Positions 31,511-40,849 of a DNA stretch of 44,960 bases are shown here, in pieces; positions within the stretch are counted from its first letter, which is position 1, and the number at the start of each line of letters is the position of its first letter. The position numbers and the translations under genes are program-made. Source of the stretch: a virus (taxonomy: Duplodnaviria; Heunggongvirae; Uroviricota; Caudoviricetes); the IMG/VR virus record IMGVR_UViG_2529292828_000011. One strand, written 5' to 3'. Below the pieces are notes generated by a model. It worked only from the letters and a program-made list of their open reading frames with translations. It was not told the DNA's origin and searched no databases.

Positions 31511-31541
31511 GAAAATAAAAACAAAAACCCGCCGAAGCGGG
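31511..31541 (-). terminator. rho-independent terminator downstream of hok
   Basis: cccgcttcggcggg hairpin followed by tttttgttttt on the minus strand. Confidence 0.55.
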
Positions 31542-31611
31542 TTAAGTGTGGGTGCATTGAGGATGCCTGACTCATCAGAGATGGCGAGGGATTTCTCCCC
31601 CGCCTGGTCTC

Positions 31612-31767
31612 TTACTCCTCAGGTTCGTAAGCTGTGAAGACAGCGACCTCCGTCTGGCCGGTTCGGATTCGTACCTCGCAGAGGTCTTTCCTCGTTACCA
31701 GCGCCGTCACTATGACGGTTAAACAGATGACGATCAGGGCGATTAACATCGCCTTTTGCTGCTTCAT
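31612..31767 (-). CDS. hok: Hok-family type I toxin (HokD/RelF-like), 51 aa
   Basis: Translates to MKQQKAMLIALIVICLTVIVTALVTRKDLCEVRIRTGQTEVAVFTAYEPEE, a canonical Hok sequence; absent from the ORF track because it is under 60 aa. Confidence 0.85.
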   Translation of the reverse strand: MKQQKAMLIALIVICLTVIVTALVTRKDLCEVRIRTGQTEVAVFTAYEPEE

Positions 31768-31979
31768 AGCCCGCTTCTCTTTGACCTTTTGGTCGGTAAG
31801 AGGCTAATCTACGTATGCAAAGTATAGATGTGGCCTCAGATTAATGTTAAGCGTCTTGCAGGACGTGTAATGTTAACTGGGGCTTTTCTCTATCTGCCGT
31901 TGGTGTTCATGCCCGAGGCAGACAGCCTCAAGCACCCGCAGCCATTCTACTTAACTCCCGTTACCTCGCCAATATGAAA

Positions 31980-32069
31980 TCAGTCAGAAAGGCGATCCAT
32001 AAGAATAATGGCAAGACAATAAATCGCCATTACAGCCACAATAGCCAGCGCACATTTGAGAACCAGCAC
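31980..32069 (-). CDS. candidate small hydrophobic peptide (29 aa; type I toxin-like or truncated hok paralogue)
   Basis: GTG start preceded by AGGAGG at 5-nt spacing; encodes MLVLKCALAIVAVMAIYCLAIILMDRLSD. Confidence 0.3.
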   Translation of the reverse strand: MLVLKCALAIVAVMAIYCLAIILMDRLSD

Positions 32070-32247
32070 GGCAACCTCCTGTATAGAACGTACACCTGTC
32101 CTGATAAATATGAGGCTGTCTCGTCAGTGATTCAATACAACTATTGGGTATAGTTTCTGTAATTTTGTTCTGTAGAAATAGAACACAGCAACCAGTCACC
32201 ACCAGCACTTATTTAAATACGCAAAGTCCGGCGCAAGCCAACATTTT

Positions 32248-32275
32248 AGTCCGCTTTGAGCGAGAAGCGGAAGTT
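32248..32275 (+). repeat. left copy of an imperfect direct repeat flanking the 449-aa gene
   Basis: agtccgctttgagcgagaagcggaagtt; 15-bp core tgagcgagaagcgga identical to the right copy; contains inverted arms ccgctt/aagcgg. Confidence 0.6.
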
Positions 32276-32400
32276 CGCGGTTGAAAATAACACCATTAAG
32301 GTTGCGGTTGATTGATGGTGAATAAACGTTATATTAACCCACCCAATAACTCCTATAAAGAGGGAGTCATTGATTCCCTCTGTTATTTTTAAAACGAATA

Positions 32401-33750
32401 TCAAAGATATCTTTCTTCAAAATCCTTTGCTTCACATAGAGCTGGATTTATTCTTGCAATTATTTCTTGGCAATTAGAGATATTATCCTGCAGAGCTTTA
32501 ACAGCCTTTTCTTTAATTTTAGGGATATTATTGAATTTTCCTTTCATCATACCTTCAGCTCCAAATGAACCCCAATTGCCTGCAGCACAGATATGAACAA
32601 TGAGTTCGAAGCAATTTATGTTGTCCATCAAACTGGAGATGTCACCATCGTATGAATTTACACTCTGAGCAAAAGTGTTAGCTTCAGAGAAAGTTGTAGA
32701 TCCGGCCTGCCCAAAAATTGATTGGATGACTTTCTGTCTAGCCCACTCATGCCCTTTTATATTCTTCATCAGCACTGGGCTAAGTTTATATTTTTCAAGA
32801 ACATCATCAATGCTAGATCTAAAGCATCTATCAATAATTTCTCTTTCCAACCCAAGAACACTAATTGCAATCTGTACAGGGTGCCTTAAATAGGTATGCT
32901 GATCGGAGGATTTTGTAGTTGAAATTGTATCCTCAAACATTTTATTTAATCTTAAGTAAACAATATCCTCCATACCTTTTAGCAAATTACCATTGGTTGA
33001 AATACATTCCATTAAACATTGTCTTTTACTTTCATCCGAACTGCACTCAACTAAGAAATGCTTTTTTATTTGCTCAAGAACATCGTTATTTAGTGGTTTA
33101 AAAGATAGGCCTAAAAGATATCTTTTTGCATTAAGTTTTATTTGTTCATTGGCATTGTCTAATGACTCTATGAGTTTTTTCAGGAGGTATGAGTAACCAT
33201 CATGATGAAGATTTTTAACACCCTCATTTACTACGATAGCATGGTCCTGAATATTAGATGTTGGGAATAAGTATGAATTGGTAAGCTTAGATAGGATTTG
33301 GTCGGCAACTTGAGTTGTTGAAAGAACTGGCTTTGAAAGAAATCTATTTATAGTTTCTGAATACACATATCGAGCTTCTTCAGCTGTCGGTTTATGGCCT
33401 GAAGGATGTGCAGCTTTATTTCTGAGAGTTCTTAACACAGTGAGAAAGTCAGCATCAATCTCTGTAATTATTTTTTCAGATTTCAATTTATTAAGCAAAT
33501 CATTTTCGTAAACTTTTTGTTCATCTCTTTTCTTGGATATTTCTGTAAAGATCGCTTTAGCAACTCTATTCGTAGTGGCCATCCCGTCTAACTTTTTGAA
33601 TAAGTCCTCGAAGATGGCAATGAACGAAAGCACTACGCATGCTCGATGAGCACCAGTCATATAGCAAATTAGTGCTTCTCGCATGTATTCTTTAAGCTCA
33701 ACATCCACGATATCACCAATAAGCTCTTCCATATCTCTCAGACTCGACAT
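32401..33750 (-). CDS. orphan 449-aa protein with N-terminal HEPN-like domain (Rx4H motif RNKAAH), candidate abortive-infection/defence protein
   Basis: AT-rich gene with AAGGAG Shine-Dalgarno; N-terminal about 140 aa resemble DUF4145/HEPN-type domains (..LRTLRNKAAHPSGH..); C-terminal 300 aa helical with no recognised domain. Confidence 0.5.
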   Translation of the reverse strand: MSSLRDMEELIGDIVDVELKEYMREALICYMTGAHRACVVLSFIAIFEDLFKKLDGMATTNRVAKAIFTEISKKRDEQKVYENDLLNKLKSEKIITEIDADFLTVLRTLRNKAAHPSGHKPTAEEARYVYSETINRFLSKPVLSTTQVADQILSKLTNSYLFPTSNIQDHAIVVNEGVKNLHHDGYSYLLKKLIESLDNANEQIKLNAKRYLLGLSFKPLNNDVLEQIKKHFLVECSSDESKRQCLMECISTNGNLLKGMEDIVYLRLNKMFEDTISTTKSSDQHTYLRHPVQIAISVLGLEREIIDRCFRSSIDDVLEKYKLSPVLMKNIKGHEWARQKVIQSIFGQAGSTTFSEANTFAQSVNSYDGDISSLMDNINCFELIVHICAAGNWGSFGAEGMMKGKFNNIPKIKEKAVKALQDNISNCQEIIARINPALCEAKDFEERYL

Positions 33751-33849
33751 AATTGCTCCTTTTGTTTAAATTTTATACGAAAACACCTCAAGCAATTAGA
33801 ATGCCTTGCTCATCGTTGATTGGCAACATCCACTTTACAGGCCCACTAA

Positions 33850-33878
33850 AGTGCCGCCATGAGCGAGAAGCGGACGTT
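33850..33878 (+). repeat. right copy of the imperfect direct repeat flanking the 449-aa gene
   Basis: agtgccgccatgagcgagaagcggacgtt; same 15-bp core as the left copy. Confidence 0.6.
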
Positions 33879-34394
33879 TCACTCATAAAGACTGGATTTA
33901 CTATTACATTAAACTCAACAAGACCTGGCCGCACCCACTCAGCGCGATCTTTGCGCGTCCGGCCCGTTTCCGGCACTATTCCCCGTCCGTATTGTGAAAA
34001 AACACCCATGCTAATTTCTGCGCATCTGAATGCCTGCGCACGCGGGTGAATGGCGGGCGGTTTCGGGCAAATGCGGGAATTAAGGGAGGATTTCCGGCAG
34101 TAAACGTGCGAAGTATATTGATAAATCTGTACGTGATTCACGGTTAACAGGTGCGCTGTTTAGTGGGTGAACGTGAGGCGTTAAGCAGCGAGCTTTGTGA
34201 GGCGATAGCGGTTTTTAGAGCCAGCTGCAGGCTCAGGAAAAAATATTCTGTTTTCGGGGCAGACACCGCAAATGACGACATTTTGCGGGGGTCTGCCCTA
34301 TCCTGCATCTCAGCAAAGCGGTGCCCTGTTCCCACCATGAGGTTTACCCGTCGCAGACCGCCGTAAGGTCGCGTTTTCCCATTCCTTTCCGTAC

Positions 34395-34735
34395 AACGGG
34401 TTTCCTTAAAGGTGGTGCGATCCAAGCTTGGCTATATGCACGAACTCCCCGATCCACCCGACTACCACAGCAATTTAGGTAACTGTTCTCTTGATCCCAA
34501 TCTTGACAGGCACGATAAATCGCCAATGGTGGTAACCATTGGTAACTGGTTTTATGGAGCGAGTAAACGCACGAAAGTACAAAGAATTCTTGAAGTGTCG
34601 GCCTAACTACAGATACACTGAAAAGACAGTTTTGGTTACTGCGCTCCGTTAAAGCCAGTTACCACGGTTCAAAAAGTTGGTAGCTCTAAGAACCTTGAAA
34701 AAACACCATTGGTAGCGGTGTTTTTTCTTATCTAG
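34395..34735. other. ColE1-type plasmid replication origin remnant (RNA II body and antisense RNA I region)
   Basis: Collinear similarity, judged by eye, to the pBR322/ColE1 ori region (e.g. gaattcttgaagtgtcggcctaactacagatacactgaaaagacag vs gagttcttgaagtggtggcctaactacggctacactagaaggacag); weaker similarity may extend left to about 34170. Confidence 0.6.
34626..34726 (+). ncRNA. RNA I-like antisense RNA of the ColE1-type origin (possibly a relic)
   Basis: Begins ACAGUUUUGGUUACUGCGCUCCG.. (ColE1 RNA I begins ACAGUAUUUGGUAUCUGCGCUCUG..) and ends in a ..GGUAGCGGUGUUUUUU terminator-like stem. Confidence 0.45.
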
Positions 34736-34778
34736 AGCTGGATACTATCACCACACATAAATTCATTAAGGAAAAAAG

Positions 34779-35249
34779 ATGTCTTCTGGAAGAAGGAAAA
34801 AAACCGAAACACAAAAGAGAAATAATCAAAGCCTTATAGATATTATATCTAGCATAAGTGAGTTTAATAATATAAAAGAATTAGAGAGAGAAGAAGGATT
34901 TGAATTGGTTGCATTTAAATTCAATGAAGTCAATTTAATACTTGAGAAGAGAGTAGCATCTAGAATAATAGTAATGAGACTGATGAACTCTTTTAACACC
35001 AACGCCATGAAAATAGGCAAAGATAAACAATCGCTACTGTCCATTGCTAATAATTTTAATAGAAAATCAATAGGAATAAAATCGACAATAATTGAAGAAG
35101 AACAAACACCATTGATTGTTTTCACAGTAGAAGAGATTGCTGTTGATGAAAAGATGCTCAACTTATCTGGTGATTCGTTAAGAATGCTAGCCGCAATTTT
35201 AGCTGGAGCACCGACATTATTTGAAAAATTAGGAATGGCCAAAGATTAA
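34779..35249 (+). CDS. hypothetical 156-aa basic protein, first gene of an AT-rich two-gene operon
   Basis: ATG with AAGGAAAAAAG upstream; Lys/Arg-rich N-terminus; no recognised domain; followed 9 nt later by the membrane-protein gene. Confidence 0.55.
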   Translation: MSSGRRKKTETQKRNNQSLIDIISSISEFNNIKELEREEGFELVAFKFNEVNLILEKRVASRIIVMRLMNSFNTNAMKIGKDKQSLLSIANNFNRKSIGIKSTIIEEEQTPLIVFTVEEIAVDEKMLNLSGDSLRMLAAILAGAPTLFEKLGMAKD

Positions 35250-35258
35250 GGGATTAGC

Positions 35259-35966
35259 GTGGGCACCGAGATTGAAAACAAACAATTAGAAATCAATACG
35301 CCATCTACTGTAAGTAGCTATACTGCTGAAAAAAATAGTAATTCATCAGTAACTGAGGTCGCTTCAAGTTTTGCTGCGATACTTATTATCGTTGTTATAG
35401 TAGTTTTAATCCTTTGCCTTTTGCAAAAGATGCATGTGGCGATAACACGTTTTTTCGAATTCATAATCTCTGTACCTTGGTATAAAAGAACAGTATTAAT
35501 AGTCATAGGAGCCATATCAACCTACCTAACAACAAAAGTACCAACTTCCTATTCATTCCTTCCTATAATAATAGGTTACATAACCACTTTTGCATTTAAT
35601 GAGTTTGCGTCAAAGAAAGATATAGAGAAAGCAAAAGCGCCTCTTGAAGAGGATATTATAGGAAAAGAAAAAACAATAGTTCTTTTTAGAAGAATAATTG
35701 AGGAAAAGAAAAACATATTCCAAGAAATAATAATTAATCGTATTAATGCTTGTGTGAGGATCACAGGAAAAAACGATAGTGACACCCTAAGAAAGTTGAA
35801 AATAAAGATATGCGAACTACAAGATATTATTTTTGCTGAAAAAACCTTTACCGAAACGCCAGATGAAGCTATTAGAAGATACGAGAATTCAGTATCTGGA
35901 GATGTTGACATGGCAGCACAGACTATGTTTGGTGATAGCAGAAGTGAGCAAGCGACTGCTGCCTAA
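35259..35966 (+). CDS. hypothetical 235-aa membrane protein (three predicted TM helices plus charged C-terminal domain)
   Basis: GTG start with AAGGGA upstream; hydrophobic segments ..FAAILIIVVIVVLILCLL.., ..TVLIVIGAISTYL.., ..FLPIIIGYITTFAF..; C-terminal Lys/Glu-rich region. Confidence 0.55.
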   Translation: MGTEIENKQLEINTPSTVSSYTAEKNSNSSVTEVASSFAAILIIVVIVVLILCLLQKMHVAITRFFEFIISVPWYKRTVLIVIGAISTYLTTKVPTSYSFLPIIIGYITTFAFNEFASKKDIEKAKAPLEEDIIGKEKTIVLFRRIIEEKKNIFQEIIINRINACVRITGKNDSDTLRKLKIKICELQDIIFAEKTFTETPDEAIRRYENSVSGDVDMAAQTMFGDSRSEQATAA

Positions 35967-36187
35967 AAAGATCAATCGGCTTATGTTCATACATTGTAGT
36001 AAAAAGCTTATTTGGTAAAAGCCAATCTACAATAAGAGCATAAGTATGCTAAATATCACTTCAAATGCTCTATGTCTGCGATATTTACCATAACATCTCT
36101 TTCCGGCACCACCTGAGAGGGCCTCAACGAGGTTCTGCTGCTTTTCCTTGTCCGTATCTCGAAAAAACTCCTCAGATGTTCCTGCAT

Positions 36188-36224
36188 GTTTGCCTGATTA
36201 TGCGGTGAGATCTTTTCTACGCGG
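36188..36224. other. second ColE1-ori-like segment (RNA II promoter-proximal region), separated from the main remnant by about 1.46 kb
   Basis: gtttgcctgattatgcggtgagatcttttctacgcgg resembles pBR322 gtttgcaagcagcagattacgcgcag...gatcttttctacgggg, which directly follows the RNA I terminator in ColE1-type plasmids. Confidence 0.45.
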
Positions 36225-36338
36225 ATTAGTGATTACAAATGTTTAAAACGTCCGTTACTGGCACAAAGCGGACAACCACGCTAGCTCAACCCTGTGCCAT
36301 GAAAATGTCAATTCATATCTGAACTAATGCTCTTTAAT

Positions 36339-36764
36339 CTAGTAACGTCTAAAATATCGAACATTTCCCTGATAAAATGCCAGTATGCGCTGCATAACTT
36401 CACTCCTCCGGCACTCGCTACAAATTATGTTTAGACGACTGTCGTAGCGACGTATTTCTCCGTCAGATAATGACCAGATAAGATCCGGATCAACCACAGC
36501 AGGTTTCTTCACCTTTGCCCTCGAGAGTTTTTTGCGGGCGTTTTGCCAGTCCTTACGCGCCTGTTCAGACGGGAATAACCCGTAGCCGGAGTTGTATACA
36601 TCACCACTGGCAACCAACTCTCTGGCAAGAACGCTCATCAGATATCTTGTCGCACCTGTTTTAGCTTCCAGTTGCCGTAACGTCTCACGACCGCTCTGGC
36701 GCACGAGTTCCACCACCTGCCCTTTAATTTTTTCCCGCTCTTCTTGTGTAAAAACTTTTGCCAC
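36339..36764 (-). CDS. hypothetical protein in the replication module
   Basis: 141-aa ORF downstream of the replication initiator; no family recognised. Confidence 0.4.
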   Translation of the reverse strand: MAKVFTQEEREKIKGQVVELVRQSGRETLRQLEAKTGATRYLMSVLARELVASGDVYNSGYGLFPSEQARKDWQNARKKLSRAKVKKPAVVDPDLIWSLSDGEIRRYDSRLNIICSECRRSEVMQRILAFYQGNVRYFRRY

Positions 36765-40379: not shown

Positions 40380-40568
40380 ATGAAAATGTTATTACCAAAC
40401 GTTAATACGTCTGAAGGTTGTTTTGAAATTGGTGTCACGATCAGTAACCCTGTATTTACTGAAGATGCCATTAACAAGAGAAAACAAGAACGGGAGCTAT
40501 TAAATAAAATATGCATTGTTTCAATGCTGGCTCGTTTACGTCTGATGCCAAAAGGATGTGCACAATGA
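40380..40568 (+). CDS. dicB: cell division inhibitor DicB
   Basis: 62 aa, MKMLLPNVNTSEGCFEIGVTISNPVFTEDAINKRKQERELLNKICIVSMLARLRLMPKGCAQ. Confidence 0.9.
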   Translation: MKMLLPNVNTSEGCFEIGVTISNPVFTEDAINKRKQERELLNKICIVSMLARLRLMPKGCAQ

Positions 40569-40756
40569 ATTCAGCATTTGCGCTTGTTCTGACAGTTTTT
40601 CTTGTTTCCGGAGTGCCAGTTGATATTGCAGTCAGTGTTCACAGGACAATGCAGGAGTGTATGACTGCAGCAACCGAACAGAAAATTCCCGGTAACTGTT
40701 ACCCGGTCGATAAAGTTATTCACCAGGATAATATCGAAATCCCGGCAGGTCTTTAA
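40565..40756 (+). CDS. ydfD: YdfD-like small membrane lysis protein
   Basis: 63 aa, MNSAFALVLTVFLVSGVPVDIAVSV..; start overlaps the dicB stop (ATGA). Confidence 0.85.
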   Translation: MNSAFALVLTVFLVSGVPVDIAVSVHRTMQECMTAATEQKIPGNCYPVDKVIHQDNIEIPAGL

Positions 40757-40849
40757 AACAGTTCCGTAATAAATATCCGGTTTCATTCTTATATGCCAGC
40801 AATGGCAGGGATTTGTTCATCCTTAAATCTGTCATGAGGTTAAAACAAA

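Follow-up and report, generated by a model that had tools for sequence, protein, structure and literature searches.

Several described systems come close to the locus analyzed here. In E. coli, the small toxins of the type I systems include TisB (29 aa), ZorO (29 aa), ShoB (26 aa), IbsC (19 aa), and DinQ (27 aa). The known type I toxin mRNAs of this species carry a long structured 5′-UTR, and both Pfam and NCBIfam include models of type I toxins (Ldr, Ibs, TisB, ShoB, Fst, and others). Hok, the toxin of the hok/sok system (Hok/Gef family, PF01848), has about 50 residues: a basic N-terminus and one transmembrane helix, probably oriented N-in/C-out, are followed by a C-terminal periplasmic domain with a conserved Cys. 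Another group is that of the small single-pass membrane regulators, such as KdpF (29 aa), PmrR (29 aa), MgtS (31 aa), AcrZ (49 aa), and MgrB (47 aa); a strong Shine-Dalgarno (SD) sequence is typical of genuine small membrane proteins. The last group consists of the phage morons and superinfection-exclusion membrane factors, among which are HK97 gp15, T4 Imm, and P22 SieA.

The window, i.e., the whole stretch of DNA analyzed (44,960 nucleotides), is a complete Qin-like lambdoid prophage, and is 100% identical over the tested 1-kb stretch to one in E. coli 13KWH46. Its early-right operon contains a 29-codon open reading frame (ORF), located between a variable cargo/defense slot and the nin/Q region; in related prophages, too, this site is usually just upstream of the hok promoter. 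The features in and around the ORF are as follows:

31980–32069, minus strand: the 29-codon ORF, with a GTG start (32069–32067) and a TGA stop (31982–31980), encoding MLVLKCALAIVAVMAIYCLAIILMDRLSD (from the sequence and the ORF list).
32080–32075, minus strand: the SD sequence AGGAGG, separated from the GTG by a 5-nt spacer (ttgcc).
32088–32095, minus strand: a leader element, GTGTACGT, conserved in the alignments as GTRTACGT in most lineages and as TTACGT on the Shigella virulence plasmid pINV.
32107–32135, minus strand: a putative weak sigma-70 promoter, composed of a −35 TTGAAT (32135–32130), a 17-nt spacer, and a −10 CATATT (32112–32107).
31964–31979, minus strand: the trailing 16 nt, TTTCATATTGGCGAGG, which the alignments show to be kept even in hok-less copies.
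32141–32272, minus strand: an upstream block of about 130 nt, conserved only within the common E. coli lineage and beginning at the hairpin TCCGCTTCTCGCTCAAAGCGGA.
31612–31972, minus strand: the neighboring and separate hokD locus (promoter scan, Rfam, and Pfam).
31972–31944, minus strand: the hok promoter, TTGGCG-17-TAGAAT (promoter scan).
31937–31762, minus strand: the hok/sok leader (Rfam RF01794, 97.9 bits).
31767–31612, minus strand: the hokD coding sequence (Pfam HOK_GEF, 1e-23, 82.9 bits).

A first-pass annotation of this DNA had described a GTG-initiated 29-aa ORF with AGGAGG at 5-nt spacing, and exactly this arrangement is present. The annotation named no strand; the ORF was established here to be on the minus strand, and its placement upstream of hok is correct in the direction of transcription, along which hokD (31767–31612) is downstream of the ORF. 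The accompanying remark that standard ORF callers would miss so short an ORF was mistaken for this allele: PGAP annotates exactly this ORF, and Prokka calls the Shigella copy in pWR100. The RefSeq entry given by PGAP is WP_000960667.1, a “hypothetical protein,” whose NCBI record reads “MULTISPECIES ... [Enterobacteriaceae]” and lists the protein on 650 contigs; the other alleles in RefSeq are mostly without annotation.

In the window, 1323 start codons open frames of 20–60 codons, and the ORF is the only one among them that has a full AGGAGG 4–9 nt on its 5′ side. By our own estimate, one or two such cases are expected in the window by chance. Thus, the SD sequence by itself proves nothing, and the evidence that raises the ORF above chance is its conservation.

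The conservation was examined among the IMG/VR prophage copies with two patterns. One was a degenerate pattern of the coding region: the frame was open in 127 of the 129 true copies, and in the two frameshifted copies (L068 and L102) the SD sequence was found to be decayed to AGAAAG. Another was a pattern of the leader only, which leaves the ORF unconstrained and hence involves no ascertainment through the ORF itself: a frame of at least 29 codons was open in all 140 copies found, a count of intact copies that is, like the former one, not independent and is inflated by shared ancestry (all homologues are close, with at least 77% nucleotide identity). The loss of the frame at homologous loci, which the first-pass annotation had pointed to as evidence against the peptide, was therefore not seen. 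The start codon is GTG in all of the 140 leader-found copies. The frame has exactly 29 codons in 136 of them, and in the remaining four the stop codon is lost and the C-terminus is longer by 2 or 6 codons. These copies encode 18 peptide variants. Counted by codon position, the variable sites of the ORF number 9, 7, and 18 at positions 1, 2, and 3, respectively. Compared with the window, the most divergent prophage allele, that of L006 (77% nucleotide identity to the window), has 12 changes that are synonymous and 5 that are nonsynonymous and conservative (pN/pS 0.15; p = 2e-5, Fisher). The pN/pS values are 0.2–0.57 for the remaining allele pairs and 0.19–0.45 for the pINV allele against the prophage alleles. 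An SD sequence is found in all divergent lineages, as AGGAGG, AGGAGA, GGGAGG, or GGAGA. Since the frame is kept open and the changes are mostly synonymous, the ORF is conserved as a coding frame; as judged from this substitution pattern, it is a genuine gene under purifying selection on the protein.

The extent of the conserved unit became clear when six lineages (the window type, L006, L008/L165/BL21, L013, L062, and pINV) were aligned. The shared unit is composed of a −35-like TTGAA(T/G), a 17-nt spacer, an invariant CATATT, a leader of about 30 nt, the SD sequence, the ORF, and 16 nt past the stop codon; outside this unit, the sequences of the lineages are unrelated. The 16 nt overlap the −35 of the hok promoter and mark the 3′ recombination boundary of the module. 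The terminator scan detected no terminator between the stop codon of the ORF and the hok promoter. On the other side, the upstream block corresponds to the right edge of the variable cargo slot and lies outside the minimal module: it is missing from the L006, L008, L013, and L214 lineages, and the column conservation falls sharply at about −203. Neither an ORF nor, on either strand, a significant fold was found in this block, and the folding of the mRNA and that of the block on both strands gave nonsignificant z-scores of −0.2 to −1.3. Three candidates were rejected in this region. One is a second copy of the ORF, tandem or decayed, within the upstream block, of which the repeat search found no instance. 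Another is an 8-bp stem formed by GUGUACGU of the leader with codons 5–7 (RNAalifold), which has no covariation support and pairs nearly as well after a 2-nt slide. The last is an inverted repeat of 19 nt with one arm in the upstream block and the other in the ORF; by eye, it is broken without compensation in the L003 allele, and it was treated as a chance occurrence.

The putative promoter is located about 37 nt upstream of the coding part of the module in most lineages. Among five divergent lineages, 11 of the 12 hexamer positions are invariant, as against 6 of the 17 spacer positions (Fisher p = 0.003), and this better conservation of the hexamers than of the spacer is the pattern of a real promoter. 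The promoter scan did not list TTGAAT-17-CATATT because it matches the consensus at only 8 of 12 positions. In four types (L023, L055, BL21, and L214), the site is replaced, altered, or deleted, and an upstream gene directly precedes the ORF. For Shigella pWR100, the table of transcription start sites obtained by dRNA-seq contains no start at the homologous promoter position, and the nearest start on the same strand lies 321 nt 5′ of the first codon of the ORF (PMC7132871, Table S3). The chance that this site is the promoter of the ORF is put at about even; the mRNA is also likely to come from early-operon read-through. In L023, L022, L025, and related IMG/VR loci, the −35 region TTGAATCACTGACGAGA gives way to a perfect 17-bp palindrome, TCTCATCAATGATGAGA (window equivalent 32121–32137). 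This palindrome could be an operator-like site; no similar site was matched elsewhere in the window or prophage, which is against the operator hypothesis.

As for the product, the first-pass annotation had proposed a single transmembrane helix with a short polar tail, and our prediction of a single-pass membrane peptide agrees with it: the best 19-residue Kyte-Doolittle window of the 29-aa sequence has a value of 2.86, corresponding to a clear transmembrane helix. The near-invariant residues are Ile16-Tyr17-Cys18-Leu19 and those of the tail, which give the signature IYCL...LM[DE]R[LF]SD, while Cys6 and Cys18 are not strictly invariant among the 140 leader-found copies. The variability within the helix tends to one face, a tendency that is not significant (p = 0.07).

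The reading that we prefer is that of a translated phage gene forming a small module of its own: a ribosome-binding site, 29 codons, and the trailing 16 nt, to which most lineages would add the weak sigma-70-like promoter. Transcription would probably be achieved by early-operon read-through and, where it is present, from this promoter. The product would be a 29-residue single-pass inner-membrane peptide with a helix of about 19 residues. From the positive-inside rule (Met1 and Lys5 as against the acidic tail), the N-terminus (Met, Lys5) is predicted to be cytoplasmic and the conserved tail M-[D/E]-R-[L/F]-S-D to be outside. Such a small membrane protein would be tolerated at native levels, and its helix may pack against another copy of itself or against a membrane protein of the host or phage, in a mode of action like that of the small-protein regulators or exclusion factors. 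It is the near-invariant residues, the one-face tendency of the variability (with the p value given above), and the strong SD sequence that suggest helix packing. We consider that a phage-made small inner-membrane peptide acting by helix packing, independently of hok, has close to an even chance of being the correct description.

The locus shares several features with the two groups to which this mode of action is likened. KdpF, PmrR, MgtS, AcrZ, and MgrB are similar to the peptide in size, in the single helix with a short polar tail, in the strong SD sequence, and in the purifying selection on specific helix and tail residues, all of which is compatible with a helix-packing partner. The peptide differs from them in that it is phage- or plasmid-borne rather than encoded in the core genome, and in that no partner gene is linked to it. 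The morons and exclusion factors are similar in being temperate-phage genes with predicted inner-membrane products, often under their own sigma-70-like promoter (putative in the present case) in an otherwise repressed operon. In contrast to them, the peptide is far smaller and has no homology to them, its gene has no terminator of its own, and the ORF belongs to the conserved part of the region, not to its variable cargo.

The ORF adjoins hok, and two other readings are built upon this adjacency. One of them, proposed in the first-pass annotation, is that the ORF is a truncated or degenerate hok paralogue, i.e., the N-terminal transmembrane half of Hok ended early by a stop codon. By eye, the Cys-containing hydrophobic stretch followed by D-x-L indeed resembles the N-terminal halves of Hok proteins; furthermore, the basic N-terminus, the single helix, and the probable N-in/C-out orientation are common to both, and the same lambdoid prophages carry the peptide, whose gene is directly next to hokD. 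However, HOK_GEF (PF01848) matched neither the 29-aa peptide nor its 39-aa read-through at E ≤ 10 (hmmscan), and the DNA alignment between the module and the hok locus gave a score of 27, which is not beyond the shuffled controls (21 ± 2.8, maximum 31). Rfam gave nothing at E ≤ 1 over 31980–32300, RF01794 being confined to 31937–31762, and the mok, sok, and fbi elements are absent around the ORF. The peptide ends 5 residues past the helix and has neither the length of about 50 aa nor the C-terminal periplasmic Cys domain of the Hok type. The position of the stop codon and the 29-codon length are conserved across the lineages, unlike those of a decaying pseudogene. The distributions of the two genes also differ. 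Among 115 copies, hok is downstream in 97 (84%), while in 17 (~15%) a DUF1971 gene region on the opposite strand occupies its place; on pINV, the ORF is intact and hok is truncated to a promoter/leader remnant; and in the divergent lineages the homology extends over no more than the promoter, the leader, the ORF, and the 16 nt beyond it. Conversely, in the Qin prophage of K-12 (L166, K-12 MG1655, 3120–3873), the place of the hok promoter, mok/sok leader, and ORF is taken by relBE, so that K-12 is without the ORF; the homology to the hok locus of the window starts 12 nt before the hokD ATG (window 31779), and the K-12 hokD is thus a 5′-truncated locus. In O157, the query matches cover only the hok-promoter end, and hok apparently occurs without the ORF. 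Judged by these distributions and homology limits, the ORF is genetically independent of hok, though adjoining it, and descent from hok is scarcely credible. Another reading is that the ORF is a uORF and a regulatory accessory of prophage hok: on early-operon or own-promoter transcripts that continue into hok, its translation would alter how the hok mRNA folds or is expressed. The ORF, which lies outside the hok transcript itself, ends at a distance of 8 nt from the hok −35 and of 43 nt from the hok mRNA leader, with no terminator between; the junction sequence is conserved, and the high frequency of hok immediately downstream is consistent with this idea. Nevertheless, a purely positional uORF does not need the purifying selection seen on the amino acid sequence, and the ORF stays intact where hok is absent or truncated, while it is missing beside the K-12 hokD and apparently the O157 hok. 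The hok of plasmid R1 also functions without such an ORF. We therefore regard the uORF role as improbable. The conservation may also be ascribed to a DNA or RNA element (a recombination boundary, a promoter region, or a noncoding RNA) in which the frame is incidental. All copies are at least 77% identical, a mosaic boundary is located beside the variable slot, and on pINV the ORF is no better conserved (77% of nucleotides) than its flanks (74–76%). The concentration of substitutions at third codon positions and their mostly synonymous or conservative effect are contrary to this possibility, as is the lack of significant RNA structure. Moreover, this frame alone stays open: two others, one of 59 aa on the antisense strand and one of 74 aa overlapping the ORF, are often interrupted or without a start codon, and in simulations with 21 randomly placed substitutions the 29-codon ORF survived in only 18% of the trials. 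An incidental frame is accordingly very improbable.

The likeness to type I toxins, which the first-pass annotation had put forward, was borne out in size and hydrophobicity, and the antisense side of such a system was not found. As a type I system, the peptide would be a membrane-damaging toxin whose translation is checked by an antisense or trans-acting sRNA. TisB, ZorO, ShoB, and Ibs are in the same size class as this peptide of 29 aa with one hydrophobic helix and a charged end, and a place outside conventional annotation is a further feature in common with TisB, ZorO, ShoB, IbsC, and DinQ. Toxicity upon overexpression is plausible for any such peptide, this one included. The gene is prophage-borne and adjoins another type I toxin gene, hokD; the invariant GTG of the E. 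coli prophage copies would keep translation low; and an addiction role would fit with the retention of a copy on the Shigella virulence plasmid. On the other hand, no antisense promoter-like site or terminator was found within or just past the ORF in the window, the hok-less L005, or the pINV copy L213, and no Rfam antitoxin RNA family was detected at the ORF even at E ≤ 1. The complementarity of the mRNA to the 200 nt upstream, in both orientations and in seven lineages, was not above that of shuffled sequences. In these respects the locus differs from those of the five toxins listed above, which have antisense or divergent complementary sRNAs. The leader also differs: instead of a long structured 5′-UTR, the gene has one of only about 30 nt with an exposed consensus SD sequence, whose sole predicted stem is without covariation support, and an unrepressed killer would be hard to tolerate with such a leader. 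The peptide matched none of the type I toxin models in Pfam or NCBIfam, and the ORF is not tandemly repeated. An antitoxin RNA may come from another part of the prophage, or lysogens may keep the gene silent. A type I toxin appears unlikely, and a membrane protein is favored over an antisense-controlled toxin because of the exposed strong SD sequence, the absence of a detectable antitoxin RNA, and the near-invariant signature. That the membrane protein is the more likely of the two is an argument from the absence of the antitoxin RNA.

A broader proposal is that the peptide founds an unrecognized Escherichia/Shigella family of phage and plasmid membrane effectors, either an unconventionally controlled toxin or a small-protein modulator or exclusion factor. 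We regard this as possible but doubtful. If it is true, the peptide should alter, to a measurable degree, membrane physiology, phage development or exclusion, or the retention of the prophage or plasmid. A third of the E. coli genomes would express it, as would the Shigella virulence plasmid, where its gene lies within the well-studied upstream regulatory region of icsP.

The distribution of the gene was examined at several levels. A 191-nt query centered on the ORF had matches in 3055 of the 5426 complete E. coli genomes, and in 1847 of the 5426 (about a third) the coverage of the query was at least 80%, mostly with 90–95% identity. The ORF is also found in the isolated phages mEp460_ev081, Tritos, Evi, and HannyBb. 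When a padded 42-aa query was searched against 5.8 billion proteins, 19 clusters were obtained, every named one of which is from Escherichia; 16 matches came from 1.84 billion representatives searched with an HMM. With a degenerate DNA pattern, 185,579 species genomes gave true matches in E. albertii, E. ruysiae, and S. flexneri alone; a further 31 matches were due to chance. No model in Pfam, PHROGs, or PADLOC matched the peptide, and NCBIfam gave a weak, sub-threshold similarity to ATP synthase subunit c helices (E 0.02–0.1). The K-12 small proteins YnfS, YdfB, and YdfW were compared as candidate homologues and are not homologous. Within the reach of these searches, the peptide family is an orphan, known only from Escherichia and Shigella sequences. 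Its most distant members are MLAALKGFVAILAVVAIYCLVVVLMDRLSD and MLIIKGVLAIVIVVAIYCLVVTLWERLSD, from which the signature AIYCL-x3-L-[MW]-[DE]-R-L-S-D is obtained. The former (P0041) keeps the synteny: replication genes, DUF977, cargo, ORF, and hok. The literature search retrieved neither the peptide sequence nor the accession, and no description of the ORF; the preprints on a survey of Hok, on UPEC small proteins, and on the Pas sRNA do not describe it either.

The Shigella virulence plasmids carry an intact, diverged ORF with an ATG start, encoding MLVLKGTLAIAAVMTIYCLIVVLMERFSD (~77–79% nucleotide identity), and 124 Shigella plasmid records with the ORF are contained in PLSDB. On pINV (L213, pWR501, 4042–4131), the ORF precedes the icsP start codon by 290 nt, its own start codon being about 380 nt from the icsP ATG; behind it comes the truncated hok promoter/leader remnant, the hok gene being gone. 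The retrieved papers on VirB and H-NS treat the long icsP upstream region, in which this ORF is located, as regulatory DNA. In BL21-RIPL (L164, 2693–3102), the allele is MLVLKCTLAIVAVMAIYCLVIVLMDHLSD, just upstream of hokD; here, a deletion removed the cargo slot together with the putative promoter, and the annotated 119-aa DUF977 coding sequence overruns the SD sequence and the first codons of the ORF. Translation of the ORF may hence conveniently be sought in data already available for BL21.

If functional, the ORF is among the commonest unstudied small genes of E. coli, being present in about a third of the complete genomes, in BL21, in lambdoid phages, and on pINV. It was probably overlooked because K-12 is without it and most alleles are unannotated. 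The observation is sound, the gene is real, and nothing about it is mechanistically surprising: it is already known as a hypothetical protein in RefSeq, and the class to which it belongs, that of the small hydrophobic peptides of temperate phages, is familiar rather than a new kind of system. Its importance would come mainly from its abundance, from where it is found (at the edge of the defense-cargo slot, upstream of icsP, and in BL21), and from its being missing in K-12. The regions upstream of prophage hok and of Shigella icsP hold a second coding gene, for which deletions, clones, and reporter fusions of these regions should allow. In addition, the ORF constitutes the conserved right-hand edge of the defense/cargo slot and is a useful landmark for mining such slots.

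The variable cargo slot of the window extends over 32401–36338, between the DUF977 gene (36339–36764) and the small ORF. It contains the gene of a 449-aa DUF4145 protein (32401–33750, minus strand), which matches PADLOC PD-T7-3 (E = 4e-15), and two unassigned plus-strand genes (34779–35249 and 35259–35966). In related prophages, the same slot is occupied by SMODS and SLATT genes; by adenosine deaminase, NTP pyrophosphatase, and SIR2 genes; by QueH; by an acetyltransferase; or by an IsrK/C4 RNA and ORF6N module. The slot looks like a lambdoid defense/cargo hotspot with the small ORF as its right boundary. Just past the 3′ end of the DUF4145 gene, a plus-strand promoter-like sequence, TTGATT-16-TATATT (32308–32335, within 32308–32391), is followed by a strong hairpin with a T-run (32359–32381 plus GTTATTTTTA). 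The hairpin may be a bidirectional terminator of the DUF4145 gene or may belong to a very short RNA; the promoter-like site and hairpin at 32308–32391 are specific to this cargo. As for the IsrK Hfq-binding RNA, a sub-threshold Rfam match (25.7 bits as against the gathering value of 50, E = 0.003) was found at 31522–31603 on the minus strand, just downstream of hokD and upstream of rem, while the cargo slot of L214 (3135–3333) gave full-scoring matches to IsrK, C4, and c4-a1b1. Finally, dicB and the small lysis protein gene ydfD are located near the int end of the prophage, at window 40380–40768 (as located from L212, 4205–4581). Together with hokD and the gene of the 29-aa peptide, they bring at least two further small toxic or membrane-active genes into one element.
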